A stretch of 64,000 bases of DNA from Perna viridis (taxonomy: Eukaryota), in NCBI GenBank assembly GCA_037379345.1, contig CM074522.1, positions 5,828,001 to 5,892,000 on the forward strand. The letters run 5' to 3'. Positions 83 through 61,300 of the stretch are shown in pieces (position 1 is the first letter of the stretch; every line of letters begins with the position of its first letter). Made by a program: the position numbers and the translations under genes. The notes beneath the pieces are model-generated. The model was not told the DNA's origin and searched no databases. It worked only from the letters and a program-made list of their open reading frames with translations.

Positions 83-1393
83 CTTCAAGATTGAGAAGAC
101 TGACCTAGAGACAGTAGCCACATTTGGTGGGGGTCTATGTAACCCTGGGTCCTATCCTGACAAAGAGAATTGTCTTGTGATGATAGATTTACTAGACCAA
201 GCTGTTCTTCCTTTACCTATCTGTTACCCGAATGGTAGTTACTCCTGGCCAGATAGTAAGTATATGCTTGTTAACCTTGTCTTATGATGATGGATTTACT
301 AGACCAAGCTGTTCTTCCTTTACCTATCTGTTACCCGAATGGTAGTTACTCCTGGCCAGATAGTAAGTATATGCTTGTTAACCTTGTCTTATGATGATAG
401 ATTTACTAGACCAAGCTGGTCTTCCTTTACCTATCTGTTACCCGAATGTTAGTTACTCCTGGTCAGATAGTAAGTATATGCTTGTTATCCTTTAAAACTT
501 CTGGTTGTAGGCCAAACTGTGACAAAATTTTTTAAAAAAGTCCCCCTTTTTTACATGAATGATTCTTTTTCGGACTCCTGACCTTCCACTCACAAATGTA
601 ATGAACCTTATTTGGCTTCAATGGCCTTTAAAGGGTACATGCTCTGGGATAAATGCACTTTGGATTCTCTCTTACTCCTAGTTGGCCCCACAACCAGCAA
701 AAAATGGCCAATTGATTTTTTGGTAACAGACCAATTTTTTTGCTAGGTATATTAGCTGGTTCATTTATATTCTATAACTTACTGTAATGACATTTCAGTA
801 TTGCCACATAGTAAGTACTGGTATATTGTTTATTCACATCAAAAATTGAAACAAGTGGTAGAGAGGGAATTTAATGAATTACAACTTCATTTTAATTATC
901 ATTTCTTTACAGTCAACTGGGCAACCTACTTCAGCAAAGAGGCAGTAATGGAACGACTAAAGAAGGCAGGCAAAGAGGCTGCTAAACAACTGGCTGGCAA
1001 TTTAGTTGAGGAAGCACTGAAAGCTCTAGGATTGCCTGAGGTATGTAGCAGCTAGTTTCTCAAAATTAAATCTCATTATTAATTTTTCCATCAAAAGTGA
1101 TATCATAACCTTGTCTTGCCAATTGTATCTGCATTATTATACTGAAGTCTTTCCATGTCATTTTATTCTACAGCTACATGTATTTCAAAATGATAAAGTC
1201 AGTATTGTTGACAAGAATTTCTCATTTCTTGATGTAATTTGATTTTTGAAGGATTTATTGGATGCAACAGGTCCTTGCCCAAGACCGGGCAATATGACAC
1301 TTGCCCTGCTTAAAGGAAAGCTTGAAGATGCCAGTTTATCTGTAATTGGAACAAGGACAGAACTGAATTCCAGATGGGAACTTTATGATAGGA
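83..1393 (+). CDS. Partial repeat 0: module C plus split module D containing a SAP-like motif
   Basis: Exons 83-255 (FKIEKTD...[15 protein letters not shown]), 913-1040 (INWATYFS...LGLPE) and 1252-1393 ([24 protein letters not shown]...WELYDR). Confidence 0.85.
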
Positions 1394-4300
1394 GTAAGTA
1401 TATTTCTAAGTATAAGATTTGATGTAATACATGATGAAAACATTTCGTTGGAAAAGAATTTAGACATATAATGTTGCTTGGTAATCTTTTTACTGTATGA
1501 TCCTAAATAAAAGTTTTAGTATGACAGGGGTTTATCGAGAAAGGTTACACTCTATATTTGTGACTTATAAGGTTGTCAAGCTCAATCATGTACAATGAAT
1601 AGAGTTCCCTATCTTATGATTTTGGCACAAGGTTCACGACTTTTTTGGCCATCTTACACTATTATGATTGTTGTCAAATTTCTAATGATTTGGCAAATTC
1701 TCTAAAAATTTTCTGATTTCCAGATTTTTTTTTCAGTTCTGTTCAGTTCTTTTTTTATATGACTCCGTAACGATTGCATCAATGGTCATTTCTGGTTTGA
1801 AAAAAAAACATGGTTGTAAAGAAAATAGTGATGCTTCTGCCAAGAAAAAAGCTGACCCAGTGGTCACAAAAGTTTAAGGAAGGCTATACATCCTCAATAT
1901 GGATGTTTTATGTTCAATATAATCAGCTTTTTGTGACAAAAAATAACATTACAATTTTTTATCTCAAATTACTATTCTTTTGGGTGTACCTTACTATTGT
2001 CTTTAGAGAGGGGTAGGCAAGTCTGAGTGTCTTAAGACTTTCCAAGGGAGAGCAAAATCCTGGTCACATAAGGCAGATGGTCTTTCTATGCAGGTGATGT
2101 GTTATTTTATAAAATCTGTTGAAAAGACCCAAGTGTATTGAATATACCATGTCTCTTCTAGGTTGTTATTTAGCTCTTTTAAACAAGACCTTGACACTAC
2201 CAGCGATAACCAATCCCACGATGAAAAAACACCTTTATTATTCCCTGACACCAAACTGTATGAGACTGGATGCCTGTGCAGATATTACTATCAAAGCTAT
2301 TGATTACACCAAGGCATTGAGGGCTTATGTTGAACTGGATCCCTGCCATTTTATCTTGTATGCTGGATTTGAGAAGTGGGAGAGACAATTTATACTCATA
2401 TCATATGAGTGGGGTAAGCATTTAGTGATCAGCTGTTTTTACATGGTAGCTGAATTCAGTTTTTTTCCTTTAAATTGAAAAACAATTTTTGAGTCTTATT
2501 TGAGAAAGTTGAATAATTGGATACCTGCAATAAATACAAAGGTAAGGAATGACTTACATGTACATGTATTAACAGTAGTTGTTTTTGCTTTAAAACTTTG
2601 TTAGAATTTAATTTACAATTTAAGATTGTAGTAGACATACTTCATATTTCGTATCTGTTCAGCAATTTATTTTTACAACTTTGCCAATTTTTTTGCAGGT
2701 AAAGAAGAAGTTTTAGAAATCACTCCAGACATAGTTGTCAAGTAAGTATTGTAGGGAGGAAGCGGTATGATAGAAGTGGATTATTGCCCTTTTTATAATT
2801 CACAAAAATCAAACCGAATAAAGAATGGTAATTCTTGCAATGTGCCAATTTCACACACAATCTATATATTTAAAAACTAAGACTGGTTATCTGATCAGTA
2901 AGTGTTTCTGTACAAGAAATAAAAGCGAGTTCCATCAGTTTTGGGTGAATTACCTTCTGACTGATACTTAAAAGGATATTTAATAGTAAATATAAAGGAA
3001 AGGTGACAAAAAAATTGTAGAAAAAATGTGAAAGGATGGATATAGATAAAAAAAACCAGTTTTGTAATGTACATTTTAATCTTTTAGGTTTAAGGTACAG
3101 CGAGATGCAGATGTGAAGAAAGTTTTTATTGTTGATTTTGGACTGAAGATTTGTATCTCAGGAGAATGTATCCTAGATGAGTATGTCATTACAGACTATG
3201 AAGTACCAATTCCACTGTGTAATGAGGATTTCACCCTGCCAGGTTAGAATTTAGTGCTGTAGAGAGATGGTAATACATTGTGTTGAAAGGACTTGTAATT
3301 ACCTGAATCTACTTGTTAGCTGGACTAAAGTTATCCAATGGATAAGTTTAGTTCTATTTATAAAAGTTTTCCAGCAGATAAATACTTATCTTCCAGCTGG
3401 GTTCATTTGTTCAAAACTGTTTATCCACTGGTTAAGTTAGAGATTGTACTGTTCTTTATCCAGTGGATATATCTTATGAAAAAACTGGGCTCAGCTGCTC
3501 AAGCTTTTAACAATTAATATCAGATTCTTGAATATGAAATTAATGGTATGAATTGAACTGAGTTTGATGTACTTTAATTTACTTTTGTACTTGAAACCTT
3601 TTGTGAATGTGACTCTATGGAAAATGGAAAACCAAGAACAACTTGAATACCTTGAAAACCAATAAATCTGAACTAACATATCAATACACTGGCTGCTATG
3701 ATTGAAGTACATGTATTTGATTTAGGTTCAGGTACTATTAAAGACTTTGCTGCCCAACTGGGAGGTGCCATTACTGCTGAGGCCTTTGATTTGATCCTTC
3801 GGACACTCAAACTTGATGTAAGTAATTACACATACATTTCAGGTAGTCATATTTTGGTGTGGCCTATGCACTGCATGTACGGCTTGTTTTATTGACATTT
3901 TCTCAAAGTGGGGTTGCCCCCAGAACTAGACAATCTATAGGTATTGGTAAAGCAAACAATGATAATGATATTGAAACATTTTTAAACTATTTTCAATTTT
4001 ATGTTGTATGTTGTGTGTATGTGTTTTTTCTTTGTCTGGTCTTTGTCCCTGGGTTACATTCTTTTGTTTTCTGCTAGAATCTTGGTTCCCTTGATTACTC
4101 TTTTTTCTTTCCTTGCAGACTGTGTTCATGAAAGGCCCAATTACAATTCCACCAGGACCAACAGGTAAAACATTAAAACTTGAAAACTATTAGTTTCTAA
4201 AATGGTAGATGTTGGGAAGAAATTTAACATGTAATTAACATTCCCATTGTAATGGGTATATAGAAGTTTGTTCCTGTAAAGTCCAATGATACAGACAAAA

Positions 4301-7300
4301 TAAAGAAAATAAAGATAAAAGCAAGACAGAAAACGAAGCAGCTGAAAGCAAACTGAATTTGATGAGTACTCATCAAGAGTATGCAATACTTCCGTAGCTG
4401 GTGAATGTTAGAGTAGTCCCTACAGTATCAATTACAGTTACAAAAGATACAATGACACTGACTCCACTGACAGGCTAAGAACGTTTTGATACAGACTTAA
4501 AGGGAAAGGCTACCTTTGCATTAAGTTTGGCTCTTATGATAAATCATACCCAGGTGAACAAAAATAAACAACCTTAAATACAAAATGCGCTTTTATAAAA
4601 TGCTCAAGGCTATGCAAAGTTCGAAATATATGTAAATAGCCATCGTACAGAGCTCTCCTTTCTGAAGGAAGATCATAAGCAGACTTTATTGATTTTAACT
4701 GAAAGTTTTCGATTGGCTCGTGATGTCATTAAGTCAGTTTGGTACTGATACAAGTACTGTAAATAATATGTAAACATAGAATATTCCGTAAATATTTCTC
4801 CGATCCTGTTTATCTAATCACCAAAACATGTTGTCTTGTCAAAATTACGATTGCAGGAATGATAAAAGAGAATATTCTAAAAGTTGTTGATCGGCAACAC
4901 AAACATTCTTTGGAAGTAGATTTTCCTATGACATACTAATCTTCTGGCAGTAAATCCCGGTTTTCGTCGACGTTGTCTGACATTCACTTAATGTTGTGCC
5001 TCAATCTTTTCTTCTATTAATTTTGGGTTGAAATTATAGAGGAAAAATCCCAGATTTGAGATTTTTTGGACGTCGTTATCAATTACCTATTTACTTTCAC
5101 TTTACAAACCGACTTTGTGACATCACAGCTCAACCAATCATGGTGGCGCCCATGGACGCAGGAAATTCAAATTGCCTAATTTTAAATCGTGATTAATTAA
5201 TTAAAAAAGGGAAATAATTTTGTTTCAATTTAATTTTCATGAACACTCAAAAGACTAGTTTCGATATTTATGACTTGCACAATAACATGGTCTTCTCCTT
5301 TAATGTTCATCACTGCCATCAGTAAGCGTCTTCTAGCTCAATGCAAGTTTTAGTTTTCTTTCCATCATAAAAAGTAGTCTGGTTTTAATGGTCCGTCTTT
5401 TTTTGACACTTACATATTTTTGCTGATATTTAATATACATTGTTTTTGAATCCATTTTAGACTGCCCATGGCAGATTGATGTAAAGAAGTACCTCCCTGC
5501 TTCAGTAAAACACATGGTGAACTGTGAAATGCCACAGAATTGTTTTGGATTGGACTGTGCCATTGATTTGTCCTTCAACCTTCCAGCTGCCCTTGGAGGC
5601 AGAACGATACAGTACAACATCCCATTCTGGTTCAAAATGAGTCCATGTGACTTTGAAATCGATGTTGGATTTGGAACTTTTACTTACAAGAAGACTCTGT
5701 TTGAATATGTTTGGGGTAAGAAATTTTTTTCCCCCTGTAATTCTGAAGATAACTGTTATTATTACAGTTTTCATCTTAAATTCATACTATCAATTATGTT
5801 CTACTTATTTGGTTCAGGACTTTTTATCAATTGAGATTTCTATCATTATCATTTTTGAAAATTGGATAGGGGAAAAAATAGCTTCAATTTAAACAAGGCG
5901 GCTGTAATTAAAAAGTGATTGAAAGTAAAATATGGACAGGGATCCAGTATAGCCTCGTTTATGAATAACAAATGAGGGTAGTAAGATTAAAAGGGGGATC
6001 ACTTTTATTCCAGGTGAAGAGCGTACACTTAACATTGGAGATGCTGATCCAGAAGCACCTGTACAAATCAAGTTAGTGTCATTAGTGTAGACATGTATAT
6101 ATCTATACATGTACTTTACCTTATAATTTTTGTGAATTTTGGCTGTAACCTTTTAACACTATCAAAGTTAAGGTTAAAATGGTGTGATCCAAATAAATTG
6201 AAGCTGTTCAGTGTCAACACCTAGGTGTTTTTTTATAAATGAAAAATTTAGAAATTTTGTTGATTTATTCACCATTGTTGAAGATTAATTGCAGATGTAA
6301 TACAATATCATGTTCAACTTATCAATAGAAATTCGGTAATCAGTAAGATACATGGTAACGGCCTGATTAAATGTCTGCCTTTTTAAATCTGAATTTTACT
6401 GTTATCATTTATTTAACTGTAGACTTCTGATTTTCATTGTTTTTTCTAAAATCATGTCAAAGTGATGCATAATAAAATTTCACAATTTAAAACTTAGATA
6501 CACCATTGATAAGATGGGAGGTGGACAGGGTTTCATTGTTGATTGTACTGTAAGGATTTGTTTCCCATTTGATGGCGATCCATTCTGTGTACCCATAGAG
6601 GAAGGTCTTCATTTACTAAACCAACAGGAAATACCACTTTGTTCTAGGAACATCACGCAACTGTTCAATAAAAGTAAGGAAGCTACAAATTGTTCTTGTT
6701 TGTATGGAGAAGGTTGAATTATTTTATATTTTAGAATAGAAATGGAACTTCTGGTAAAACCTGTCCATTAAACCAGATACCTTTATAAATTCCTGTCTAT
6801 TTAATCAGTATCAATAAATTTGAAACCTGCATACACCAAACACTTGCATAAACTGAACATGACCTTACTGTCTCATACAGTTTTTGTAGGTTTCACTGTA
6901 TATACTATGAAAATTAATATTGATTAGTATGCTTTGATATACATGTTATTTATGGGGTTTTTAGCCGTTAAGTTTGTTAGGACATTGTAACCCAATTTGA
7001 ATTTTATTTTACAAACTGTGAAAGAACTTTAATTTGTAGATCCCAATTTTTGTGGGTTAAGGAAGTCTTGAATTTGTGGTTTTAAGGTTTTCAGTTAACA
7101 CATCAATGATAATCTCTGTTTCGTTAGGAACCTAATTTTGTGGTTTGGCTCAACCATGAAAACCACAAAAATTAGTACTCCACAAACAATAGTACTTTCA
7201 CAGTATTTATCTTAGAAAAGCTTTAGAAGAGAACAGAACATTTTTTGGGGAGTAAAATGGTTTGCCAAAATTATACTGTGTATAATATAACTTCTCTGAA

Positions 7301-16300: not shown

Positions 16301-19300
16301 GGTAGAGATATTCCATACTTTGGTATGTGGTGTGCATATTTTATATGTTGAATGTTTTTATATTTCTAAAAGCTGATACTTAAAGCATTTTTTCTAATTT
16401 CAAATTTCAGGAATAAAAGTCGGATAAAATAATTATTTCAGATTAACATGCTTATGTAGTTTTGACTTGTTTTGAAACATAATCTCATTTACCAGTCTGT
16501 ACTTTTGCTTTGGAGTGATTATTAGAGAATTGTCTTTATAAAGAAGGGTGGTACATGATATGCTAATGAATAGGATAAGATTTTGACAAAAAAACATCTT
16601 TTGAAGAAATGTCTTCAAACATTTCTTTTTCACAAAATTTCAGGCATGATTTTTTTTTGTTTTAAAATAGAATTTCTGTTTTTTTTTTTAAATTCCAAAT
16701 TTTACAGTTATGGCTGTTGTTTTTATAGTCCAGTATATTGAACACTTTCGTCTCTTGATTTCCTTTTTTTTTTTCATCTGAATAAAACCATGCCGGAAAT
16801 TTGTAGCAGGTGAAAACATTTGAAGAATAGAGCCAACATAGATTACAACATTAGCACATGTTCTTCATGGTCCATGTCAAAGCAGGGTCTGTTTGATTAA
16901 TTTATTGTTCAGGTGTCAATTTCACAAAAAGTCGTATATGTATAGTTGATCGTAAGTAATGATGTCACAACCAATAATAGCTTTGTGACGTCATAACTAA
17001 CGATCAATTTCACACTTACAACTTTCTGTGAAATGTACACCTGGTCGAGAAACGCATAATTTACCTGCCATTTGACACTAAACTTTAATCAGTCAATCAA
17101 TCTTCCTTAAAAAAAGTGAAGATATAGATAGTTCAATTTATGAAAACACTGTAAGAATTCTGATTAATGACATTCCAATTTCAGAATGTCCAGTCAAGTT
17201 CAGCCTACCAGCCATACCATCAGATAAAACCATTAGCTGCCACGTTCCAGATTTCTGTACAGGAGTAGAATGTTGTGTAGAAATACCATTCATTAAGAGG
17301 TCTTTCCATTTCTACATACTGGTTGATGGCTGTCGGAACAGGATTAGAGCAGGAATAGAGAAATATGGCATTGATGAAGCTTACTTCTCATTTGACAATG
17401 GTAAGAACTACCTCTTAAGAAATTGGAGAGGTAGAGGGTCAGGGGTTGGAAAGGCAAGACCATTGGCCCTTTGCCCCTTTGACAGAAAATGGCCCTTTCA
17501 TTAAAAAAAAAATTGATATGATTTATTAACAAATAGCCCTTCATTTTTTTGAAAATGACCCCTTCTCAAAATTTCCTTCCCAACAATTTGAAGGTTGGTG
17601 CTTCATTTAAATACATTTCTATGTGAAATCTTGTGTATTGTATTGTATGAAAACTGTATATTGTTTTCTGAAAAGTTGTGATGAAAGAAATTTACGGAAT
17701 AGCCCTAATTAACCTTTACACATACCTTATAACTCTGCAAACAAAGTTTAGGGGTTGTAGGTGGGGTATATGGGTTTTGATCTTTAATTTGGACATAACA
17801 TTGTCCACAACATCTGAGATAGAACTGGCTGTATTTTCATAAAACTAAATGAAGGATAGGATGACTTTTTTTTAAATGTTCATACATGTATTACTTTCTT
17901 TTAGGACGATTTTAGTTTTGAACAGGAAGAATATTAGCAGTGCATTTGGATTTGATTGTTTTAGGGCAACTTTGGAGTGATTAATTTGATCATTTTCTTT
18001 TTAAAGCTTTACAATATTTGACCAAGATGTACACTAGATTATTTATTGAATAATTGTATTTATGTATTTTGCTTTTAAGGTGTACAGCAGGCAGTTAAAC
18101 TAACTGAAGTATTCCACCTTGTGTGAGTAATGCATTTACATGGTATTCTTTATTTTAACTTTGCATTTATTGGTTAAAAACATGATCTTTCATTTGTAAA
18201 AAAAAAGGATTAGTTAAAATAATTTAAAAAAAAAGGCATATTTTTTCTATTTAATTTGAAATTGTTTTCCTGTGTATTAGTTTTGTTTTGACCTTTTGAC
18301 CTTATTAAATATTGCAGTCTCTTGTTCATGTTTAGGATAAGAATTTTTCCTCACTTATTTTGCCTTCTAATGAGAATAATTGTTAAGCTTTCTTATTTCA
18401 GTTTCACTGTCGATGATTTCCCAGATGAGAAAAAGATCTTGCTTAACATGGACCTTAAGATATGTCTGGATGAAGGGAAACCATGTGACCCAGAACTTAC
18501 GATTGTCAAGGATCTTTATCTCCCCAAAGTTGGGTGTGATTGGACAATAAGCCTCCAGAATTTTAGTGCCTCTGACTTTTTGGCAGAACAAGGACTTTCC
18601 TTACAGAATCAGCTGACGGACATTGTTGTTGAACAGGTATTGGAACGACTTGGTATAGCTGAATACCAACAAGACCCACAGTGTGATATCAGTGCTGCTA
18701 TGTACCAGTCACAGTCGGGGGATATAACTGGCTGGAGGAATGGTGAGTTTATGTTGTTATGAAAGTGTTCAATTATTTTCTCTAGACGAGGTCTATGATT
18801 TTAATTAAAATAAGATTATGCAGCCAAATTTTACTGCTATTTGTGTGATGCCTAATGCAATGTTAAAACTGAAGCATTTTTTACACTCTCAGATAAAAAA
18901 AAGTTTGTTGATACAAATTTCTTTTAAAATTTATGGCTAAGTCCTTTTATGACTGTAAGTCTGCCTTCCTGTAAGCAGAACTGCAAACACACAACTTATA
19001 TCCCTTTCTTTCAATACATGCAAACCTTTTCAATTTTTTATCATCTCTAGATTAAAGTTTGTTTTACTTATTTTTTCCCAGAATGCCAACACCCCATTGG
19101 CAATATGACAGTATTAACTCCCTTGTCCATTAATTACATCCTTACAAATTACATCCTTTCCATTTTTTTCATTTTCAGAATGCCCACACCCCATTGGTAA
19201 TCTGACAGAGTTAGCTCTCTTGTCTATGAATTATTTCCTTACAATTTGCATCTTTTTTTTTCTTTTTCAGAATGCCCACACCCCATTGGTAATCTGACAG

Positions 19301-22300
19301 AGTTAACTCCCTTGTCCATAGCTACACCAAAGTGTAATATTGCTTCCCACTGTACATCTATAGACTGTTGCTTGTACATACCAGTACTCAGAACATCTTT
19401 CCATTCGTACTTTGACCTTAACATGTGTGAAAGGTCATTTAAGATTGGAATCGAGAAACTTGTGATTGACCTTGACTTCTTGACTTATGCATGGGGTAAG
19501 TTGATTGGTGTAATATTTTTTTTTTCAATTTTTTTATATGTATGCATTTTGTCAGTTATATTATTGTATAATGTTATTGGTCCATCTATGTTTGTCCTTC
19601 ATCACATTTTTTTTGCTCCTGTGATAATGATTTTATGATAAAACATATATAGCTCCCTTTTGATTACTGAAAATGATACTTGCTGTGTTTATCAGTTTTT
19701 GTTGATAAATTATATTTTTCTATTTATTGGAAGATTACAAAGAGTGATCTGTATATGATTTATCCATTAACAGAAACAATTTATATTACAGATTGTATGA
19801 TTGAATTGTAATAAATTCAAATATTCTAGTTATGTCATGTGTAGAACTATCAAGTACAACATTGTCAACTATATGTCCTAGAATTATATATGTATGTGAT
19901 GTTTTTTTTTAGGTCAAAGAGATACAAGAGATTTACTTGATGCATACATATTTGAGTAAGTTTTTACATCTAGTCACTACTTTTTATTTCAAGTTCTTGA
20001 AGATGATAATGGATAATTGATAATGAAAAATTTACATAGGAGGGGTCTGACCTATTTCATATTAAAATGAGACATTTGAAAAAAATACCAGGTTTTTTTA
20101 CCTTCCATATTTTCACCAGATGGATCTTTTTATTTTACATCAGAGCTGTTCCAAGACAAAGGTGGATCCAAGGGTGCTCCGTGGGCAATGTTCCTAAAGT
20201 CTGGTTGATTATAAAGTAAGAATTGAAAATCACTGGAGTGGTTCAAACTTAGGGCGGTTGGCTGGTCACCTTTTCTATTTTCTGGATATGCCTCTGCTAG
20301 ACCTTTAAATCAGAGAAGGTTAACCCTGGAAAAGATTTTAAATCTCATCATGAGATAAATCTATATGTAGATGAGTTAAATAGAATATGACTCTTGAATC
20401 ATCTTTCATAAAAAAAAAACCAATTTGTTTTAGTTTCATCATTGATTACAACATGGCAGATGAGTTCTTCAGAGTAGACTTGAACATGAGTATGTACTTG
20501 GACAGAAGTCAACAGTATGTGACCTTTGAACTTTATAAGGACCAGATTCTACCCATACCAGCTTGTAATTATGACACAACCTATGGAATCCCAGGTAAAT
20601 TTAAATTTTATTCTCCCCTGCAGCTGAATGGAAAGGGACATAAAATACCTGTGTCTGTGTCTGTCTGACAAAATTGACTACGTGGATGCAACTCCTTAGC
20701 AACTGCCCAACAAATTTTGTTCAAATTTTGAAGGATTGTTAGTCACCATATGTTGTTGATCATATTTGTTTTACACTCACTTTTAAAAAATTTCAGTATT
20801 TTTTTGTTGTTGCCGATATTGTATTGTCAAATTTGACAGGAGTTTTGGGACTTTTTCACTTCATGTTTTTTTGCGGCAACCAAAGGGACATGTGGTTAAG
20901 CATAGCAATCTTGTTTTAATTTATTACTTAGATTTTTTGATAGACATCATGATAACTCATGAACACTTGGAAGGATTTGAAAATTTTTTCAGTTCAACAT
21001 TTGTCGTGATGTAAGAAACTTCATTGTTTTCTAATGTTTTGTTTATGATTTATGCCAAAAAAAGGAGTATGTACATGTATGTATCTTGTGTTTTGATCTA
21101 GTTGTTTATATGAAATCTTCATAATATGACTGATTTAGGAAAAATCACTGTATTTTCTATTTTAATGCTTACATAAGTTTTGATCAGAGCCTCAGTTTAG
21201 GGTAAATAATTGGTCTAGTTGTCAGTTACAAAACACTGTTGCAGATTACATTTTTTAATAAGAACAGTATTTTTTACATTACATGTAAACAACACTACAG
21301 GATTCATGGAACACATATTTTATTTGTATTATCTATCTAATTTAGGATGTTTAGTGGTTTTTATTTGTGGGTTTATATTGATATACATTGAATAGAATTA
21401 CTCTACCTTACAATCTTATGCAGGATTTTATTTGCCTAACTGGTATACATACCACAGCCTCCCACCAAACTCACTACTGACTGCACCCATGGCTTCTAAG
21501 CTGCTGCAGTTCCTTAAGATAGGTGAAATGATGGCTTCTAATCAATGCCAGCAGTCAGGAGAGAAGTACAGCCCAGCTGTCAATAGATGGAAGACAGGTA
21601 AGCTTACAAAAAAAATTAATGGCATAAAAAATGAAAAGAATTAAGTACTTATTGGTTGTAATGTAGTAAAAGTGTTTTTGTTTGAAATTCCATTCTTAAG
21701 AATGCTATAAAATCTATCAATAATTTTTTTCTGTTATTAAAATTAAATAATATTTGTAATATTCTGTTTGGAAGTTACCCAGTTTCTTTCTACCTTCAGT
21801 GTGTCCACTTGATGTTCCCATGGCAACACTAGACTCATCAACAGTGGGTTCAATTGCTGATGTGTGCTCCAACATTGATTTCTGTAGTGAAGTAGATTTC
21901 CTCGGCAGACCATTCCATACCTACCTGCATTTAGATCCCTGTGCAGGGAATGGAACTATTGGTATTGAGAGATTCAACTTGGCACTAGATTTAAAAGATC
22001 CTGCTACTTTTGGTATGATTCTTAAAGAATTGTGAGGTTCCTACCATAGATTGTAATCTCTATGTTATATTTTAAATGCAATCCACTTTAAAATACCTGT
22101 ATATGGAGGTTATTATAGAGAACCCTGTATGTCTTTTGGTTTTAGCTTTGAATGCATCTCCTCCTTTGCAATTTTCAATAGATCTTAAAAAATGTAGTTG
22201 AGCTAGTATCAAATACACATGTAATACTGGAAGGGTGTCAATTGTCTGAATGTGCTTTTAATTTTCAGAATATGAGAATCCCAAGAAGTATTTTTGATAA

Positions 22301-25300: not shown

Positions 25301-28300
25301 AGTGACTCTTGGTAGTGTTTTGCTTGGTCTGTTTATACCTTGTAAGTCTTTTCTTGTGCAATATTTTAAAAATGAGTTCTTGAAATTTAATGTTTGAATA
25401 AGTTGTATATGGTAGAGAAAAATAAAATTCAACCATATTTCAACCTTTTTCATAGTAACATGCTTGAAATTGAAATATGAAAAGTTTTAATAAAATTTAT
25501 AGATTTATTTTTCAATGATAACTTAAATAGGAAAAAAAATCACCTTGAGTGCATTAACGTACCATGGAATGTATTATGTACAGGTTGTATACATACTCAA
25601 ATGTTTTTGCAGAATGTGGTAACATAGAGGGGACTATATCCCTGCCAACAGAGGTCTCTGCTAACATCAAATCAGACTGCACCACTGTCATGTTCTGTGC
25701 CAACATGGGATACATCAGTAGGAACATACAGGGAACCATCAAATTGGATCCCTGTTCATATGAGATTACTGTGGGTCTTGAAAGTATGGAGGCAACTGAG
25801 TCACTCTTAGTTTTCAACTGGGGCAAGTCTCAATCATTTGCCCTGCAGGGAGGCATCAGGATGGAGTAAGTTATTATTTTCATTTATTTATTTAGTGATC
25901 AAAGTAGATCTATATGTTTTCACATGTTATAAATGTTACAAAAATTTGCATTATTAGAAATTTAAAAGTGAAAATTTCTTTTTCGGATGCTTGATTATTT
26001 AATATCAGTTGTATAGAAAAACAAAGCACAATTTTGTATCTATGAAGTTTTCACTTCCATCATTTCTTTAGCATGAGGCACTTTGTGTGCTCTCCGTGGA
26101 TCCGGAAACAGCAAAAAATGCCGGTTATTGACGGACAAATTCTGCAAATGACCGACGACCATTTCCCAATATCAGACATAAAAAAATTGTCAACCCTTAT
26201 AAATTACAGTCTGCGTGGTTTTATTAGTGTATAAACATCCTGTCTACCAGTCTTATAATTGTTTATTGGAAATGAATTGACTGGTGTGTGTCAATTTTAG
26301 CCGATGTGCAGCCACCTGTGACTGCAATTTACCTGTATCTGATTAGTTGATTGCATAATTGAATTAACGGTACACATGCAGCCCCATTGCGTATACAAGT
26401 CATTTGAAGAAACTCGGAGAATTTTCATACATTTATTAGTTGGTAATTAAGAAAAATGTCCACCATTTTCCCGCTGACCTTTCAGAGGTAACGAAAGCAC
26501 ATGGAACTGAAACTATGAATCAGTCGTAGTTTGTAATTATTAATTCATCAATTGTATCTTTTTAACACAGAAGTCAACAGACCGTTTTAAATGCTTTAAA
26601 TAAATATACAAAATGTGTTAGCGATTTTTTTAAATAATCAACATTTTTTTCATCACTTGGAAGTTTTCGGCTGTTTGCCTATGTGATGAAAAAATCTGAG
26701 AGATACAATGTTTTGTTTACATGTTAGACCGTCCATGTGTGGTCGAAACCAGACTAGTCCACTCGCTTTAATATTTTGTAAAAGACAGAGTATGTGCTGA
26801 AATAACACAGTTCCCAATTTTACCTTAAATAACTACATAAAAAAGTTTATTTTCGGTCTGAGCATGTAAAAGACTGACACAAACGTCTGCTGAAGTTTGA
26901 TAAAATGTCCAGCATGGGCAGTCAAAATTTCCAGACCCTTGGTGCTTTCATATTTTAACAAAAAAGAGAACTTAAAAATAGAAATAGCCGGAGTTCTACT
27001 GTCCAATATTTTGCCACTAAACGATGAAGAATAAATCTGTGATATAGATAATGATTAATTAGTAAAGCAACTAATGATATTGGTTGTGATCTGTCAAACT
27101 TATATGTCATATCTTTTCTACTTTAGTTACACAGTCCATGATTTAACAAAGGACGGAATGTATCTGATATCTATTGACATTGGCCTCTGTATGGAAACAT
27201 CTGACAAAACCAACTGTGATGCCAAGTACACTGTATTAAAAAATGTCCAACTACCAAAGAAATCATGTAATTGGAACATGGGATTTGACTTCTCTGGACA
27301 TCCTAGTATGTATTTGTCTTAGAAAATCTATGATGTCACCAGTTTTTGCAGGAGAATATATTTTAACAATGAAAAGAATCATCATAATGTCATGTTCAAC
27401 CAATGAGATTTTATTGACAGTTTGTCACAATCCAGCAACAGCTTATCTAAATGTTGATTTTTTCATTTCACAAGTTCATATCACATTGTCCCTTTATTAA
27501 TGTAGCAAAAGATTTAGTCATTCAAGAATTAGATAAAAAAAAACCAAATCATAGAGATATTGAAATACCTACTTAAAAAACTGAAATTGTTGAAGAAGGG
27601 AGATTTTTTTATTTTGGTTATCTCATGTTCCTTATCTGATTGAAATGAAAATATCACTCCATTATTTCATTGCAGTTCAAAAATGTTCAAGGCATATTTA
27701 GATTTTCATAAATTTGAATTTCCACCAGGAAGGAAGATGGATGTGAGAGCTATGCAAGACATACATTTTTGTGTAAAATAAATGTTATCATACTCTGTTT
27801 CTTCTTACAGCATTTGACTTGACAACCTATCTGACTACCAACAGTTACACAGACAGTACCCCACTCTCCCCATTGGTCATTCAAGAGGTTGTGAGGTACC
27901 TTCAGCTTGAGGACTACCTCCTGGAGAGTCATTGTGATAACTCTGCTTCACCATACACGCCCATCAATGCACAGGGATGGAATGTTAGCACAGGTAGATT
28001 TTCTCATTTTCTCTTTATTGTTTCATGTTTCTCATAATTAATTTTTAACTGTATCAAATTTGTGTCATGTGTTGAAGTATTAGAGGTTTTAGCTTGAATT
28101 TTTTTTCTTCATTTGTGAGAAATTGAAATAAAGAAGACACTAAGGGGAACTACTAATGGCTAATAGAAAAAATAAGGAATTAAGAAAAGCCAACCTAAGC
28201 ATTTTGTTTTTTTCCTATTTTTCAGTTTGTCAAAATGCCCCAACCTTGAACACCATAACAGGAGGAGGCATTGCCTGTCACCTTGGCGACAGCTGTACCA

Positions 28301-43300: not shown

Positions 43301-46300
43301 GTGAGTAATTTCCTGTACTGATCTGCTAGTTTTTAACTTCAACAGTATGGCATCAAAATGGATTGTATAGTCTTTTATCGTTTAACAAATTGTTTTTTTT
43401 TTATTTTTCATTTTCAGATTCCATTACTTTTTTTATTCACAAATTTGGCAAAATTAGAATTTTGTTCACTCTCTGTACAATAGAGTACTACAAATTTGAA
43501 GTACAGTGGGAGTTAATACCTGTACATTATATGAATGAACTTAGAAAATGTCGTCTTTTTCTCAGACTGTGGACTGTCTGTATCTATCCCACCATTACCA
43601 GCGGGAGTAGTCTGTACCATCAACAAAGACACGTGTACAGGACTGGACTGTTGTATTGGTGTACCGCTGACCAATAAAACCATGAACTTCTACATTAATG
43701 TAAACCACTGTTACAAGGATATCAGGGTTGGTGTAGAGACAATGTTCAGAGAGTACAAGTTACTGGACTACAGCTACAACACACCAGAAAAGTTTAATCT
43801 ACGTGGAGTTGGAAGGATGGAGTGAGTTTTTTGCTCTTGTATATAAAAAGTGCCTGTGATACATCACATACATCTTTCAAACGTTTAAAACACTGTTTTT
43901 ATCCTGATACAGTGACCCCAACCAAACTGGCATAAATTCTTGAACTATGTTTTGGTCTTCATTCACTTTTTCATTGCATCTGATTTTTTGTGTCAGAGTA
44001 AAGGGACTTTTTGACACACAAAAAAAGAGGGAATTAGGGTGTATTTTATGCTTTAGTTTTGTCATTAATAAAAAGATGTTTATTTTGCACCAATTTCAAT
44101 TTTCAATATTGATATTAATTCATTTACTGATTCAAGATCAAAATTGTGAGGAATTTTAAAAAATGCATGTTGTAAATTTTAGATATAACATAGAGAATTT
44201 CATTGGTGGTGAAGCTTACTTGGTGGATTTGAAATTTGATTTTTGTCTTGAGTCATCAGCTCCATGTGAGTTCAGTGAGGTCATTATTGAGGATGTCAAG
44301 TTCCCCAAGAAGAAGTGCACATGGGATGATACTTACAGATCCAAAGGTTTGTTGATGTTAAAGTTGCATTTTGTTATTACCACTACCTTGTGATCTAACA
44401 GTGAAACTCTCACCTCAAGTTTAGTATGGTGTTCATATTTGCAAAGGTTTTGATTCCAAGCTTAGATAAATCAATTTGAGATAAATACTGTAATCTGATT
44501 GGTTAAAATAATTTTGTTATATCTCAATGGATAAAAAAAATATTGACACGCTCCTATTCAGTTAAATTTAGAGCTATTTTTCTCATGTTTAAAGATAAAA
44601 ATATGTTTTAAAATTAATTTATAAGAATTGGCTATGATAAAAATTTTGTCTATTGAAAAATAACATAAATTTTCCATGTGCATATTGTTTATTGCACTTC
44701 GCTTCGTGCAATGAACAATATGCTCATGGAAAATTTGTTATTTTTCAATAGACAAAATTTTTTCATAGCCTATTCTTAAGAATACAGAGACAACTGAGAG
44801 GCAGTTTCTGTTTCTTTCTGCTAAGCTTAGAAGAGAAGGGTAATCAAGGGAACCAAGGTTATAGCGGTAATCAAAAGAATGTAATCCAGGGACAAAGACC
44901 AGACATGGAAAACAGACATACACAACAAAGAACATAAAGTAACTAAAATAATACATATAAAGTAACAAAAGTAAATGAGCAACTAAAAACTGGGAGCATG
45001 GACCAGGTGCACTGCTTTTCTAGAAACACCCGCCGAGTTGCTCATAAAAAGTCGTGTCTGGGGTAGACAAACGAGGAAAGGGGAAACTATGATATATGTT
45101 CTGATGACTAAGTTAGGTTTGGAATATAGTTTAGTAAGATTTACAAGACTAAAGGTCTGATATGAGGATTTTAAGAAATTATATACAAGTCACTGAACTC
45201 AAAAGGTCATAATTGGAGCCAAGGGTCAAAATATTTACTCAAGCAATCCTGTTCTTTATTCTTACCAAACTTATCTACTATGTTTAATATTTCTGCTATC
45301 CTATTTTATTATTACTTTACAGAAAAAAGACAACTCACGGTATTTACCTGTTTTCATAAAAAAAACTCATCAAGCAAAACAAGTGATGACCTTGTGCTCT
45401 TACTATTTCTTTAAGGTCAAAGATCAAGGAATTTTCTGAAAGATAAATTGATTAAACAAATTAATAGATGTGTTTTACATTGAAGGTGTTTTTCCATTAT
45501 AGATTTCTCCAAAGAGCAGTGGAGTAGAGAACGAGGAATCACAGCAGCAGTCTATCCCTCATATTACATCTCAGAATTGTTACAGACTGTTGATCTAACA
45601 AACTACTTCAAAACGTCTCAGTGTAGTAGAACAGCAGCTCCATATGACTCTCCCACTGATGGATGGAAAAATGGTACAATCTAAAATAAAATTTAAAAGA
45701 ACAGTTACACTTTTTTTGGCTGTGAGCAATGTAAAAAAAATCCTTAAATTTTTTTTTTTACAATAAACAGATATTAACAGAAATGCCTCCTTCCTACATA
45801 TGTTTTCATGAAAAACGATTCACACAATGTTTTGGTTAGAAAAACAAAATTTCTAGCTGTGATAATTCTGTTTTTGCCTTCCAGTATAACTAATTGAGGT
45901 AGTTAAACTGGAAGGAAGTTCCAGATCATAACTGAAAAAATTGTGATTCTTGTTAGATTGTTATCCCCTACATGAAACTAAGAAATTTATTTGAGTGGCC
46001 TTTCAATAATATTTTATTTTTAGAATGTGCATCATCTAGTGTTGTTGTTGAGACCATACCCACCAATCCATTGACCTGTCATTTGAAGTCTGACTGTGCC
46101 AGTGTCAGCTGCTGTCTTGATGAAACTTTTATCGCCAAAACATTTGAAGTTGTCTTTGAGATAGATGACTGTGAAAAGAAATTGTTCATTGGTATTGAAA
46201 AATTACAGTTCCATGTACCTCTGAAAGATGTTGAATTTGGTATGTTTGGATTTATTTCTTTATTCCTAAAACTTTTTCTATATTGGAGATTAGGAGAGAT

Positions 46301-49300: not shown

Positions 49301-52300
49301 CAAACTCCGGCATCCCCTTGTACTTGAAAATTTGGTTTAATATAAAGTAAATCACTGGAACGCCTCCCTCTTACCCCTTTTTTTCAAAATTTGTTTGAAT
49401 TGCCAGTGAGACCCTTGCATTTTGTTACTATTGAAATGCTGTAAAGGATTGTAGATTGTTAACATTGACCATATTTACCATTTTTATGAAATTATGCAGG
49501 TGTTCAACTACAATAATCCAAACATACATTTTTCATCATGATGTAACACGAATGTTTCCAAATTTACAAATTTAAATGAGTAATCAAGGGAACAAACGTT
49601 ATAGCGGTAATCAAAAGAATGTGATCCAGGGACAAAGACTAGACATGGAAAACAGACATACACAACAAAGATCATAAAATCATACATACAAAATAACAAA
49701 AGCAAATGAGCAACTCGGACTCCACTAAAAACTGGGAGCATGGACCAGGTGCACAAACTCTCATTTTAATCTGAAGTACCAAAAGAATCATGATAAGAAA
49801 TTGTAATAATTTCTGAATATATAATTACATTAAATATGTTTATATTTTATCACAGGATTCACTATAGAAAACTGGAAGACGAGCCGTGGACTTGCTGATG
49901 ATGCTACATTAAACTCATGGCAAATAGCTAAATTATTAGAAGAAACAGAAGTAGCTCTGTACAAGAAATCACCAGGATGTGATAGGAATGCTGGGAAATT
50001 TTCTGGATCTGTGGATGGATGGGTTAACAGTAAGTGCCGTGCTCTTTTTCAAGGAGATTAATATACCTCTTTTACGTGAAATCACATTGTCGGTCTATCT
50101 GTATCTGTTAATAGACAGTGGTAAGCTCAACTTTTGTTTTGATGAAACTTTAAGCAAGTGTTTTGAAATACTTGACATTGTATCAAATAGTTTCTGTGAC
50201 ATTGTATCAAATAGTTTTTGTGACATTGTATCATAGTTTCTGTGACATTGTATCAAATAGTTCCTGTGACATTGTATCAAGTAGTTTCTGTGACATTGTA
50301 TCAAATAGTTCCTGTGACATTGTATCAAATAGTTTCAGTCTGATGCTTTGAAGAGAGGTAATTTAACTGTACATGAAGCTGTGGTTCTTTACACCATTTC
50401 ACAAAGGAATATTGTTTATGGAAGTAGCTAAGTAATTTGTTATAGGATTTTGTGTATTACTGTCCACCTTTTAGGTAATAAAATCTGACCTAAAAATTTC
50501 TGGCTTTCATTTCAGTATTTTAGTCATTAATAATTGACTTTGAAAAAGTTTGATAATGTGTTATTTGTTTCTTCACAGACTGCACACTGGGTATATCCCC
50601 TAATGTACTGGATGGCAATATTGTGTGTCACATTGGAGCTCTATGTACTGAAGTTGAATGCTGTGTTGGGGACTCAGAAACAGCCATGGACATAAGTTCT
50701 TTTCTTTCAATTAATCCATGTGACTTTACCATTATGGTGGGTGTAGAAGGATACCAGTTTACAGTCCCCCTGTCAGAGTTTGATTATAGTATGTATATTA
50801 GTTTTTCAGTAGGTATAAAATAAACAAGAAATGAGCTGTCATAACAATAGGAAATTGACTTTTTTTGTCGTAGTTACGTCTTTGGATGTTCAAAACCAAA
50901 AATTAGCAACATGCTAGAATTTAATGGAGCTATATTGACAAAAATTTTACAATTGCAATAATCACAAAGTTTTTGTTATCAAATTGATTTAATAAATCAA
51001 GTTTCATGTTTACACTAAATTATACATGACCGTTGTTTTGTCAAAAAGAACAAAATGTTAAAATTGAATTGAACAACATATTCACCAACAAGATCTTAAC
51101 AAGACATGTTCAGCAGTGGCAAGGTGTGAAGGTTTGACTAGTCCAGGAAACTTATCTTGTTGATGTTATATTTATCAATGATTCAGCTCAATTTTCTATG
51201 AGCTTTTCTTTCAATGGCAGCATTATTTTTCTTTTCCTTCAGCCCGTAGTTACGAGTTGGATCTTGGTGGTATATACCACATTAGCTTTACCTTGGCTAA
51301 TCTCATGTACAGCCGGGCCTATATCGTAAACATGACTGTCAGTGTATGTTGGAACAGTGGCCAGAACTGTGACTTTACATCTAAAGTGTTTGAGAACACA
51401 CTTCTACCTAAAATTGAATGTCAAACACAATTGGACTTTGCTCAACCAGGTAACATTACTAATATATCAAAATTATGACTAGGTTTAGGAAGACTATTTT
51501 TGGGATTTGTCTTATATTTTGTTGCAGTTACTTTATATTTGGCAAGTGCATGTCTTTCGAATTCTTTTTGAGATGAATTGTAAAAATTATTACTTCTTGA
51601 TTGCATGTTTTCTCAACCAAATATTGTTTCCAAGTCTAACATATGTTTAAATAATCTGATGACTCTATCAAACCTCAATTGTTGATATTTAAAAGATGTA
51701 CTTGTCCTTTTAACCTGGTATGAATTTTTCAATTGCACTAATCAAAATATACCACTAATTGCTTTCTGTTGAGTGCGAGTTAAACTTAAATTTCAATTTT
51801 AAGGGTTTGATTTGCCAACCTGGTTCACTGCTACTGGACATGTGGATGCTGCTCCTCTCACAGGAGATGCCTTGGATGACCTTGAAGAAGTCCTTGACCT
51901 TGTCAGGTTCATTGAAGCAGATGACTGCATGCAGGCCAATATAACAGCTAATGGCTGGAATGATGGTAAGAATTAAAAACAAAATGAATTATTTACCAAC
52001 CAATAGGGTCTTTAAAGAAAATATACTTGTATCAGATTATTAGGAAGAAAAATATTTGGGCATTAATGCAAACTTTATCATTTTTTTATTTTTATAGATA
52101 AAAGGAGATTATTAAGTGAGTTTAAAGTGACTCAATTTCGATATTACAGTCAAAAACCCTGCATGATATTCAAACTTTTCGCAAAGGGATGCAAAAGGAG
52201 GTAATTCACTGAATTTGTAAGTTTGAAAGTGACATATTTATGATATTTTTATTATTATATAGAGTGCTCAGAAGGCCCAGTCACCCTCCCTGATATTACA

Positions 52301-55300
52301 AACAAAGTGGAGTGTACTCTGCAGTCTTCCTGTTTGGCTATGGACTGTTGTATTGAATCCCCAAGACTTGGTAGAAAGTTCCATACCATAGTGGATGTAG
52401 ACCCTTGTTATGGTCGACTGAAGGTTCAAATTGAGAATATGAAGTTCAATGTTGGACTCTTGGAGAAGGCATATGGTATTTTTTATTTGATTGTAAACTT
52501 CTATTTATTAAATACTGACTATTGACTCCTGTTGAGTTGAAAGTGAATGTAAAAATATCTGTTTTGTCACTCAAATGATTTGCACAAAAAATATCACTTG
52601 TTTCATTGACTTCATGACCACATTAGGATTACCAAATTAATGAGCTGATGTTTAGTTGTAATAATGTGATAATGGTTTTTTTTTTTTACATTTTCAGGAG
52701 ATCTATGGCAAGTTTGGCTGAAGGGAGTTGTAAGAATGGAGTAAGTATAATCTGAACTTTCTCTCCCCCATGAAAAAAATCTATGAAAGGTCTTCTTCTG
52801 TTTATATGAGTTACAATGAATTAGGAATTTACCAGTTCCTACTAAATACTTGAATACCAAAGGTTATAGATTTAAATCAGGATTCAAACAAAAAATTTTC
52901 TCTCTAAAATAAGTATCATTAATATATAATACATATGAACCTGTCCAAACTGAACCCTGAATAAATCTGACACCTGCCAAAAGCAGGCATTTTCTGTCCT
53001 TTCACACCAGTTTCAGTGGGCTCTGAACCTATTAAACTTGAACAAGTCATCAGTTTGAAAGAGTAATCAAGGGAACCAAGGTTATAGCGGTAATCAAAAG
53101 AATGTAATCCAGGGACAAAGACCAGACATGGAAAACAGACATACACAACAAAGAACATAAAGTAAATAAAATCATACATACAAAGTAACAAAAGTAAAAA
53201 CTCTGACTCCACTAAAAACTGGGAGCATGGACCAGGTGCACTGGTTGGGTAAGCGTCCTCTGCTTTTCTAGAAGTGTTATGTTTTAGACAGTTTTTATTG
53301 TAGAAGAAAGTACCATTCATACCATTGTAAAATGTTTTGATATTTATCATATTATTTTTTAACTAGCTTTACAGTAGAAAATCTTCAGAGTGAGAATGTG
53401 TTGCTGTTGAATTTGAACATGAGTGTGTGTTTCCAGTCTTCTGGTCCATGTGAAGTTGGACCAGTGGCTGTTTTTGACAATACCCTGCTACCTAAGGGAA
53501 TGTGTGAATTTATCAGGGATTTCCCAGATCCAGGTATGTAAACTCAATTTTCTGTTTGAAAAATGTCATATAATTTGGAAAGAGTTATTTTCTTTTAATC
53601 AATTTACTTGTTGTTATTTTCTTACCACTTTTATTTTTGCTTCTTTTGCATCTTTTTGCATTCTTCATACCAAGAAAGACTTTAAGGATCAATATTTATT
53701 TAAAAACTATGATCAGTGTTCACAAAAAATAATGAAGTGGCTTTGTTTTTGTGTGTTATTATTATTGATTTTATTGCTTTAGTAATAAACAATACTTTCA
53801 TCATCAATCTCTTCCATAGACCTATGACCAGTTCCTTCATATCTGTCTGCCTGTTAACTGACTGTGCTATACAGTGTGTCACAAGGCATGAGTACTACTA
53901 ATTACAAATCTGCATGGCTGTTTAAGTTGTACTTTACTAATTTGCATAAATACTTAGTTTGGCAGAGATGTAAAGCTTTGAAATAGTGAATATACCCTCT
54001 TCACAGGAGATTGTTCCATCATTACTAACTTTATTTGTACATTTTCAGCTTTCTCTTTGACTGCATTAAAGGCAACCTATGGAATAACAAGTATCAGTCT
54101 TCCATCATTCTTTGTATCTGAGGCCCTCAACACTGTAGCAGTATCTCAGTATCTTATGTCAACTGCTTGCAATCGGTTGACATCTCCATTCGGTAACACA
54201 TTTGATGGCTGGGTCAAAGGTGAGTCTATTAATATCACTAATGCAACTTTGTCATGAAACTTTTACTTTTATACTGATCTTTTTGGATTTGAATGGATTG
54301 GATTAAACAATCAGTTTAGTACTTTTGATAAGACAATTTGCTTCAATCTGACTCTTAGCTATATGGTTTATGGGGTTAAGGATACATTGTAAATCATAAT
54401 ATATGATACTTTTTTCTAGTGTGACCATTTTAGGATGAGGTATCCATGGGATATAGAGATTATTGTTTAATGCATTCTGAAACTGTAATGCCTTTTCACT
54501 GAATTTCAGGATGAAAAAAGAACAGATATGGTGAAATGTAACAAATACACCAAATAACTAAAATTTTAAATAGTAAATACTTTCGGAGATCACCAAAAGG
54601 TCTTTAACAAGTGTAAAGTAAGCTCTGAAAGGTACCAAGAACAAAAAATTGAGAGTCCTTTTTCTTTCTTTTCCAGGATGCACTGCCCAAACTATAACTG
54701 GTGAATACCTCAGTGGTACCGAGACCACCTGCTACACATTACCAGATTGTACTGGTTTCCTGTGCTGTTCTGATACTGCTGACATCAGTCGCTCCTTCCA
54801 GTTCAAGTTGTCTGTTGATGCCTGTAAATACAAGCTGACTATTGGCGTTGAAGATTTAGAATATGAGCAGAATCTTCTGACCTATAAGTTTGGTATGTGT
54901 GCTTGAAATATATTTTAAGCAAAACTTTTCATAAGAATAAAGTTGAATTTATAAAATCGGTAATATACATGTTCAATATCATTAAATGAACAATACATTT
55001 TCACTGATTACCCATACAAATATTGACCTGTCTAAAGAACTATACATATTTATTTTGTTTTTACTCATGTTATGGCTATATGCATGTATGAATGTACAAG
55101 TATGAAATAATTCTCATTGTACACAGATTTGTCATTATTTTACCGTATCAAGACCATTTATGCCAAATCATTTGACCCTTAATTATTGAGATAGAGAAAT
55201 TGTAATAAATGGTGATATGTTGATATATCCTATACATATTTTATTCAGGTACACAAGATAAATTCTACATCAATGGAATGTTTAAGATAGAGTAAGTATA

Positions 55301-58300: not shown

Positions 58301-61300
58301 GTTCCACTAAGCTTGACAGAGTTAAAATGCTTGATCTATTTAAGTGGCAGTCTTTGTAAGAATCATGCAAAATCTGAAAAATGTGATACACCCCAAAAAA
58401 GGCTACATATTTTTATTTTTGTAATTCAGTTGTTTTATGGGTCTATACTATGAAATGTGTAATTATTTATTCAAATCTGCCTGCGCTTAGGAGATAATCG
58501 CACTGAAAATCCAGTAGATTCTATTGTATTTGAGTGCGATTTACAGAGTTATCTCCCTTAATTTTGAGATCTACAGTGCATTCTATATAATTTTTATCTC
58601 CTAAGAGCATGGGTTATATGAAAATCCACATGTTAATTTCTGTTTACTATGACATTTCAAACAGAATATCAAAAATAAAAATATGTAGGCTTTTTACCCA
58701 TGAATCACATTTTGCATGATCCTTAGCTGGAGTGCTACTTAAAATGTAAATAATAGCAGAAAAAAATGTATATTAGGTTTCTTTAAAAAAGTTATTGGCT
58801 GGAAATAGTTCATTTAAAATTATAACATAACTGTATCATGTTGTTTAGTAAGAAAAGAGTGGTTGGAAAAACAAGCTTTATCCGGCATGGAAATCTATGA
58901 TAGATCCAACATACAAGAAAACGAACAATTCTCATCTGTTTCATTAAATGAACAAAGTAGATTTCACTTTTTATGACAATCTGCTTGTATAATACATGTA
59001 GGAAGGTTAGGGGTCAATTGTGTTTTGAAATTAAGTACCTTTTTTTGACTGTCAGTTAAGTTTCATTATCCTATGCAGTAAATGTATTCATTTTTGCAGT
59101 GGACAGAAAAATGCAAATAGTGGTCCCCCACAAAATTTATTATTAACACTATAACAATTTTTTTAAAATGCAAAATATTGGTACCTGCAAATATGTTCAC
59201 TTGACAGAATTCACGAAAAATTACTACGTTTACAGTGCCTTTATAGCCAACCATAAGGGAATGTCAGTTCCATATAGAGCATATGTTTATTCACTTCCAG
59301 TCCAAACCTAAGCTAAAATTAGATATAGATATTTTACTTTAACCACTGAAAATTTTATTTATGCAGATTGTTCAGTATCATCGGACCTTGAGTCGTTACC
59401 AAGCACTCTGATGAGGTGTTATATCTCCTCTGACTGTAAATCTGTACAGTGTTGTCATGAGGTAAATCTACTTGCTACTCCTATGGAGACAGAGCTGACC
59501 ATGGATCCATGTAACTTTGAACTGAAAGTCAGAATAGAAAAACTGGAATTCAAAGTACCATTCTATGAATTTGACTGGGGTGAGTTGAGTTGTTCTAAGA
59601 CTGTAATTGAATATAAATGAAACCTTTGTGATCCATGTTTAGAACTATAATCTGAAACTGAAGAAAAATGACATAGGAACCACTTTTGATAACTGAAATA
59701 AGATGTTTTATTGCTGTCAAGTACTTAATGGTTCTTTATTTTAAAGGTATTTGACAAAAAATGTTTTTCAAGTAAATTGCACTGGTTGTAATTACAGAAA
59801 AAAAAGGAATTTGGTTCTTTTCTTTGGAGTGCAATCACCATGTTAACAAACATGGTCTTTTTGAAACTTAATCATATACATTTATATTCTGAATATATGG
59901 ATGCAAGCTTGTTAACTTAAGTGATACTTTACAATTGATTCTGTTTATAGGTGTTAAGAAGAGCATTGATTTGTTTGGAATACTTCAAATGGAGTAAGTA
60001 GAAGTTACAGGTTAAGTATAGTTTGTGCAGTGTTGCCTCCTACCCTTACCCTTGTCCATAAAATAAGCTTTTTGCTACAAAAAATGCACCTTGCTTTTTT
60101 TTTTTTTTACAGTTTGTACCCTTTGGTCTTCCCTACCTTGTTTTGTACAGTTTGTACCCTTTGGTCTTCCCTACTTTGTTTTTTTTCAGTTTGTACTCTT
60201 TGGTTTTCCCTACCTTGTTTTGTACAGTTTGTACCCTTTGGTTTTCCCTACCTTGTTTTGTACAGTTTGTACCCTTTTGGTTTTCCCTACCTTGTTTTGT
60301 GCAGTTTGTACCCTTTGGTTTTCCCTACCTTGTTTTGTACAGTTTGTACCCTTTGGTCTTCCCTCCTTTGTTTTGTCCCTTCTTAGTACCTTCTGTATTG
60401 CTCCCTCATTTCTTCTGACTTTTGTGACTGGTATTTAGACAGAACCATTCTTAAAAGTATGAACATCCCAAAATTAAAAAAAAATGTTCTCTTCTTCACA
60501 GTTTCTAATCCAATTGTTTTATTGAAGTCTTTGATACTTATGCAAATACTTTTTCTGTGGTTTTTAGCAGATGAACCTAGGATATCAAATTTACACATGT
60601 TTTACCTTTCCATCATATTTTTTTTTGTTTCCAATGGTATCTCACAAATGACATTAACAAATAATGACTTGATAATTAATTTCAGCTTCATTGCCGAGAA
60701 CCTGTATCTATCTAAAGAATTCCTGGTTTCCATGAATTTGACGTTGAGCTATGAAGCAGCAGGACCAGTCCATTCTAAAACGGTTGTCATGGATAAGGTT
60801 CTGTTACCAAAGAAATCATGTGATTGGAGTTCTGACTTCCATGTTACAAGTGAGTTAAATAAATACATAAAAAAGTTTTTTTCAGTCAGCATGGTTAAGA
60901 AGCAATATATAAAGTGAGTTATTGGTTCTTGAAATTGTGGTTATATTTATTAAATTTAGGGATTATTGTATGTATTTATTATCAAATTTGTCCTTCTAGT
61001 CCATATTGTGACTAATTTTGTTGGTTCAGTACTTGTTAAAATTCCATATTGTTAGCTTTATTTTTGCAATTATATATATTTCCCTCTTGCACATTTGGAA
61101 AAAATAAAAGAGTTGTGTTAGTTATTCAAGCCCTTCCATTTCTGACCCACATATTTACAATGATTTGACCATTGCTAATCCTAATATCCATGGACTTTAT
61201 TTTTGTGTATCTTAAACATTTGTTTATTCAAAGGTTTCTCATACAACACCTGGGCCATACAGAGGAGCCACTCTCCTAGTGTAGCTCTGACTGAGCCCCT

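Follow-up and report, generated by a model that had tools for sequence, protein, structure and literature searches.

Which cysteines are bonded to which in a protein built from many copies of one cysteine-rich repeat, and can the copies themselves tell? This question is raised by a 64,000-nucleotide (nt) stretch of the Perna viridis genome (assembly GCA_037379345.1, contig CM074522.1, positions 5,828,001 to 5,892,000 of the forward strand; hereafter the window, numbered from its first nucleotide). The window has a GC content of about 33% and represents the central part of a single intron-rich gene on the plus strand, in which iterative searches with hidden Markov models (HMMs) identify exon modules in the strict order A, (B), C, D from position 2162 to the window end.

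2162 to 64000, plus strand: repeat array from module A1 as far as the start of A28, with about 197 residues and ten cysteines per repeat

Below, A1 to A6, C1 to C3 and D denote the cysteines of a repeat unless a module is named. It is very probable that the ten-cysteine repeats of this likely secreted protein, with an estimated total length of about 11,000 residues, lose their cysteines in five fixed pairs (D-A5, A1-A3, A2-A4, C1-C2 and A6-C3) that are likely disulfides within one predicted domain. Models of this domain suggest that D forms a helical cap ahead of a beta-meander made up of A, B and C.

Cysteines are lost in pairs throughout the window

A sequence-only reading of the window had counted seven loss events, all of them paired, and this count is borne out. 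All 14 replaced codons could be located, no loss inside the window is unpaired and all remaining complete repeats of the window contain exactly ten cysteines. The losses are distributed as follows.

2239 to 2274, plus strand: repeat 1, A2 is Tyr (2239-2241) and A4 is Ala (2272-2274); loss common to all four paralogues
3726 to 4164, plus strand: module D1, predicted as two exons (3726-3817, 4119-4164) from splice signals and homology to the Mytilus orthologue; the D slot is Ile (4140-4142)
5559 to 5561, plus strand: repeat 2, A5 is Ala; partner of the lost D1 cysteine
20495 to 20515, plus strand: repeat 8, C1 is Tyr (20495) and C2 is Gln (20513); the unit at this position has the same loss in all four paralogues
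21850 to 21882, plus strand: repeat 9, A2 is Ser (21850) and A4 is Phe (21880); both cysteines kept in same-position paralogue units
25660 to 25695, plus strand: repeat 11, A2 is Ala (25660) and A4 is Phe (25693); both cysteines kept in same-position paralogue units
33673 to 34111, plus strand: single exon D14-A15-B15, D is Ile (33795-33797) and A5 is Ala (33942-33944); loss shared by Mytilus orthologues
60747 to 60770, plus strand: repeat 26, C1 is Ser (60747) and C2 is Val (60768); loss also in the same-position unit of two paralogues

The D1 cysteine and the A5 that follows it are both present in the Mytilus orthologue, so that both positions differ together between orthologues. Perfect pairing of the three named columns by chance in 26 repeats has a probability of 3.6e-9, or about 3e-7 by our own arithmetic once any matching and offsets of ±1 repeat are allowed. 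Repeats that share a loss are no close kin of one another (15-21% identity, compared to an array mean of 22%), and for repeats 9, 11 and 15 the neighbours at the same array position keep both cysteines, so the sequences indicate that the paired losses of the window arose independently.

One partner in repeat 29 is spliced out in an RNA-like contig

The array runs on past the window to repeat 33, about 12.5 kb downstream, and thus comprises about 33 repeats of the same length and cysteine number. In repeat 29 of the same gene (L007), A3 is Tyr (TAC), and the usual acceptor of this repeat reads AA instead of AG (L007:2170-2216, window-relative 66,170-66,216). A 21,249-nt contig from run X2 uses an AG 21 nt further downstream and joins L007:1563 to 2210, removing seven codons including that of A1, whose TGC stays intronic. 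The contig spans the exons of repeats 28-32 with their introns removed and reaches about 12.9 kb further 3'. Splicing is observed for repeats 28-32 in this contig, with X2 taken as RNA by guess; no listed run is recorded as RNA. Two other accounts of repeat 29 were dropped: an unpaired loss, suggested by the nine cysteines of a first model, because the contig splices out A1 while A3 is Tyr, and an AT-AC intron, because the donor before the acceptor reads GT and the acceptor in the contig is AG.

Five pairs partition all ten cysteines in paralogues and homologues

Three paralogues of the gene are located at C12:23.9 Mb, C12:29.0 Mb and C4:8.9 Mb. The four paralogues together contain 123 units; a script called their exons, and in 12 units the choice of acceptor or a shift in the alignment was put right by hand. 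With both slots readable, the 123 units show 20 co-losses and no unpaired loss (D-A5 3, A1-A3 2, A2-A4 6, A6-C3 1, C1-C2 8). A6 and C3 are both lost in unit P29_21 and A1 and A3 in unit P4_21, with matching same-position losses in the homologues P0047 and P0125, respectively. Terminal unit P24_34 has no A3 and its A1 slot is unreadable, and unit P29_3 carries an additional unpaired cysteine next to A6. An inserted loop after A1 in unit P24_25 (L033) and in P0044 seems to hold an extra cysteine pair, a possible paired gain.

The repeats are collinear across the four arrays, although the C4 paralogue has only about 22 units compared to 33-34 in the others. Units cluster by array position across paralogues (support 0.95-1.0), same-position identity is 27-61% between paralogues, and the neighbours of units W9, W11, W15, W29, P29_21 and P4_21 retain both cysteines. 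As a rule, repeat n of the window's gene has its closest match in repeat n+1 of the paralogues, which argues for an old array that has not been homogenised.

A profile search of 1.84 billion representatives returned 892 matches at an expectation value (E) of <=0.001, and 150 of these 892 underlie the homologue figures. Homologue units come from bivalves, a nemertean, a flatworm and amphioxus; 421 of 439 were kept, and 18 that were judged by eye to be truncated, mis-modelled or read-through were dropped. The kept units contain 46 co-losses and 7 unpaired losses. Over 188 non-redundant units, the five pairs represent the top 5 of 45 column pairs and partition all ten cysteines, with phi values of 1.00 (C1-C2 and A6-C3), 0.87 (A2-A4), 0.86 (A1-A3) and 0.81 (D-A5) and Fisher p values between 5e-6 and 2e-14, while the sixth-best phi is 0.42. 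Most losses concern one pair and a few concern two. The Mytilus orthologues repeat the loss patterns of the window's gene and add their own, differing from it in keeping the D1/A5 pair and in losing A2/A4 in repeat 8.

The claims of the sequence-only reading fare unequally against these data. Its pairs A2-A4, C1-C2 and D of repeat n with A5 of repeat n+1 are lost together again, independently, in paralogues and homologues, and covariation across repeats and homologues places all three within the top 5. That cysteines are lost only in pairs stands for the species' own genome and fails for the homologue models, where the 7 unpaired losses, plus 2 in dropped units, stand beside the 46 paired ones. 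The invariance it reported for A1, A3, A6 and C3 extends over the window and ends outside it, and the two bonds it had called indispensable are not: A1/A3 are missing together in repeat 29, in P4_21 and the homologue of that unit, P0125, and in amphioxus P0030/P0164, and A6/C3 in P29_21, Mytilus P0047, P0042 and P0161 (Mytilus, Potamilus and Sinanodonta proteins).

Structure predictions favour a D-A-B-C folding unit

Modelled with AlphaFold2 in the D-A-B-C frame (P0067, a Mytilus unit orthologous to D4-A5-B5-C5; 54-row alignment), the repeat reaches a predicted local distance difference test score (pLDDT) of 93.4 and a predicted template-modelling score (pTM) of 0.87, with values of 96-97 in the loop carrying the D cysteine. 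In contrast, the A-B-C-D frame (AlphaFold; part of P0029; 50 rows) reaches a pTM of 0.67, with 75 and then 45 in the D-cysteine tail and 58 in the A1 region. Single-exon rows, which degraded the alignment, were left out of the folding alignment. The better folding of D-A-B-C favours a unit offset from the A-B-C-D order of the array, in which the bond between D of one repeat and A5 of the next would likely be intradomain and the C-to-D link would likely be the hinge. The predicted D-A-B-C model consists of two helices, a long cysteine-bearing loop and a meander of about nine strands. A2 (C78) and A4 (C89) are placed on adjacent hairpin strands, and C1 and C2 on either side of the turn between strands 157-166 and 176-187. 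Predicted secondary structure and the comparison of domain frames are compatible with the named pairs.

Paired loss probably reflects disulfide bonding

That disulfide cysteines are lost in pairs is a textbook rule, and from it we infer the five bonds. A mutation of one partner would leave an unpaired thiol behind. Among the many other cysteines of an oxidising compartment this thiol would be harmful, and in a protein with several hundred of them it would promote mispairing, so that the second cysteine would be removed soon after. Swaps between small and large residues (Ser/Phe, Ala/Phe, Tyr/Ala, Ile/Ala) may refill the vacated space, and any single bond can be spared. The domains would line up like beads on a string to form a stalk, with a vitellogenin-like head at one end and a PAN-containing tail at the other, and such a stalk of disulfide-stapled domains might conceivably belong to a scaffold or carrier protein outside the cell. 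Unpaired cases are few and fall mostly at A4; they may be intermediates that are tolerated, or errors in the models.

Several points weigh against this explanation. Among the kept homologue units, A4 is lost alone four times, A5 twice and A3 once, and two further readable unpaired losses occur among the dropped units (P0138 A1 and P0046 A4). A6-C3 and A1-A3 are each based on just 3 non-redundant co-losses, the repeat-29 splice is known from one contig of one run of guessed RNA status, and the two AlphaFold frames were modelled from different source proteins. Covariation, finally, reports coupling and not chemistry, and the co-lost cysteines could be neighbours or metal ligands instead of disulfide partners. 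We regard this as very unlikely, as the cysteines disappear two at a time, not in threes or fours, and these twos account for all ten, in a protein with a signal-peptide-like start and 30 N-glycosylation sequons across repeats 1-26.

Little credence can likewise be given to the scheme of the sequence-only reading, in which losses are always paired and three bonds are dispensable while two are indispensable. It agrees with the window, where 7 of 7 losses are paired and A1, A3, A6 and C3 are invariant, and A1-A3 and A6-C3 are indeed less often lost. The co-losses of A1/A3 and A6/C3 nevertheless refute the term indispensable, unless all units concerned are unexpressed or unfolded, and the homologue models contain unpaired losses. 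Least probable of all is a merely apparent pairing, which would stem from the common descent of a few degenerate repeats or from gene-model and alignment error: the events at positions 1, 8 and 26 are inherited by several paralogues, so that raw counts overstate events, and the exons were script-called and partly hand-corrected, but same-loss repeats are no closer than average, Mytilus orthologues carry the same patterns and add others, and the signal persists after redundancy removal, with the data suggesting at least 10 independent paired events.

The repeat array is part of a very large multidomain protein

In addition to the disulfide-linked repeats that we favour, the gene encodes a large N-terminal part. 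Exons for about 1,340 residues precede the array, with the first exon 38 kb upstream, as located by mapping back the Mytilus protein. The N-terminal exon is hydrophobic and by eye signal-peptide-like, likewise in the Mytilus orthologue. This putative signal peptide is followed by vitellogenin-like, M23-like and SAP regions and then by the repeats. Homologues match Vitellogenin_N, M23 and SAP in Pfam, and the gene itself contains a SAP exon and, further downstream, a PAN exon, both above the Pfam cut-off. Its tail of about 3,500 residues is also present in Sinanodonta and Branchiostoma proteins. Another exon of SAP type lies in the window.

1252 to 1395, plus strand: second SAP-like exon (Pfam SAP E=0.023, below cut-off; orthologue alignment), between a cysteine and the A1 cysteine of repeat 1, where the D loop would otherwise be

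In the first two units (L006:7645-7785 and window 1252-1395), a SAP or SAP-like domain thus replaces the D loop between a cysteine and the A1 cysteine; a SAP fold within a likely secreted protein is unusual. The M23-like domain (P0004, residues about 1030-1135) apparently lacks part of the zinc-binding histidine motifs and may be inactive. Six arginines directly follow the last repeat (L008, about 2545-2570), presumably a proprotein-convertase site that would free the array from the tail. Tandem repeats of 107 bp and 97 bp at 170-492 and 19079-19319 of the window duplicate the end of an exon along with the donor site and the start of an exon along with the acceptor site, representing possible alternative splice sites. 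One interspersed repeat with the same pseudo-translation is found in introns on both strands at about 3850-4150, 38200-38500, 44750-45000, 49500-49750 and 52950-53350.

Relation to known families

No family above the Pfam cut-off was found for the modules or repeats. Sequence searches of the PDB returned 0 matches for P0007 at E<=0.1 and one spurious match for the A profile, and Foldseek found none at E<=0.001 among the PDB and viral models. The best structural match, over residues 82-186, is the FAIM beta-sandwich (3mx7; Z 7.0, root-mean-square deviation 3.4 Å, 88 aligned residues; next row Z 5.0), with a Z typical of common arrangements, 9% identity and the helical cap and N-terminal hairpin left uncovered.

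The nearest named cluster by language-model features (0.77-0.84) is DUF4773 (PF15998), a possible remote relative, with template-modelling scores of 0.41-0.48 between Atlas models, below the bar of the tool. Membership was rejected, as the Pfam HMM (>27 bits) matches 0 of 116 A modules and none of the multi-repeat proteins scanned; hhalign gave a probability of 0.1 with a 3-sequence half-domain profile. The DUF4773 genes of this genome above the Pfam cut-off lie at C13:2.77 Mb and C4:9.59 Mb (L061-L063), not on the arrays. DUF4773 proteins, which are not shown to be the family of the repeat, appear in octopus mucus and oyster haemocyte lists in PMC11431876 and PMC12064177.

The closest proteins are the Mytilus 'SAP domain-containing protein' VDI30403.1 / VDI57613.1 and uncharacterised LOC134727441, which have the same architecture and repeat, and the D14-A15-B15 exon is 67-70% identical to Mytilus proteins. 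Other relatives with this architecture and repeat occur in Potamilus, Sinanodonta, Mya, Mercenaria, Lineus, Macrostomum and Branchiostoma. All carry automatic names only, and the database records examined are fragments. Among large lipid transfer proteins, Vitellogenin_N (PF01347) is the point of contact: homologues P0013, P0030 and P0164 pass its cut-off, while orthologue P0007 and the single exon of the gene itself that was scanned show no match. In contrast to those proteins, M23-like and SAP domains and about 33 novel repeats follow the vitellogenin-like part here, and VWD has no match in the partial proteins scanned.

PMC7456536, citing Thornton 1981 and Rubinstein and Fiser 2008, states that cysteines of a disulfide are gained and lost in pairs, and disulfide connectivity is predicted from correlated mutations in PMC3548674. 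The rule, and the step from co-lost cysteines to a bond, are the same here; the present case differs in comparing an ancient internal array with its paralogues and in one partner being removed by a splice-acceptor shift, not substitution. A literature search found no paper on the mussel repeat protein family; subscription papers and supplementary tables, which lay outside the search, may list its genes.

Meaning of the paired losses

The paired losses extend an established rule to an uncharacterised domain that lacks both a Pfam family and a clear solved relative. They are a clean case, found in nature, of cysteine loss that is compensatory, and they overturn no principle. They yield a complete, testable disulfide map together with the domain boundary D-A-B-C, which is what expressing and solving one unit requires. 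They also draw attention to an unstudied invertebrate protein of very large size, which annotation pipelines split into fragments. On balance, we lean towards an undescribed old family in bivalves, a nemertean, a flatworm and amphioxus, with secreted, vitellogenin-headed proteins of about 11,000 residues built on a new five-disulfide domain, whose roughly 33 copies keep position-specific identity and whose full disulfide map can be read from sequence, including the splice-shift deletion of one partner. If this is true, the position-specific identity kept across paralogues suggests that each array position may have its own contacts.

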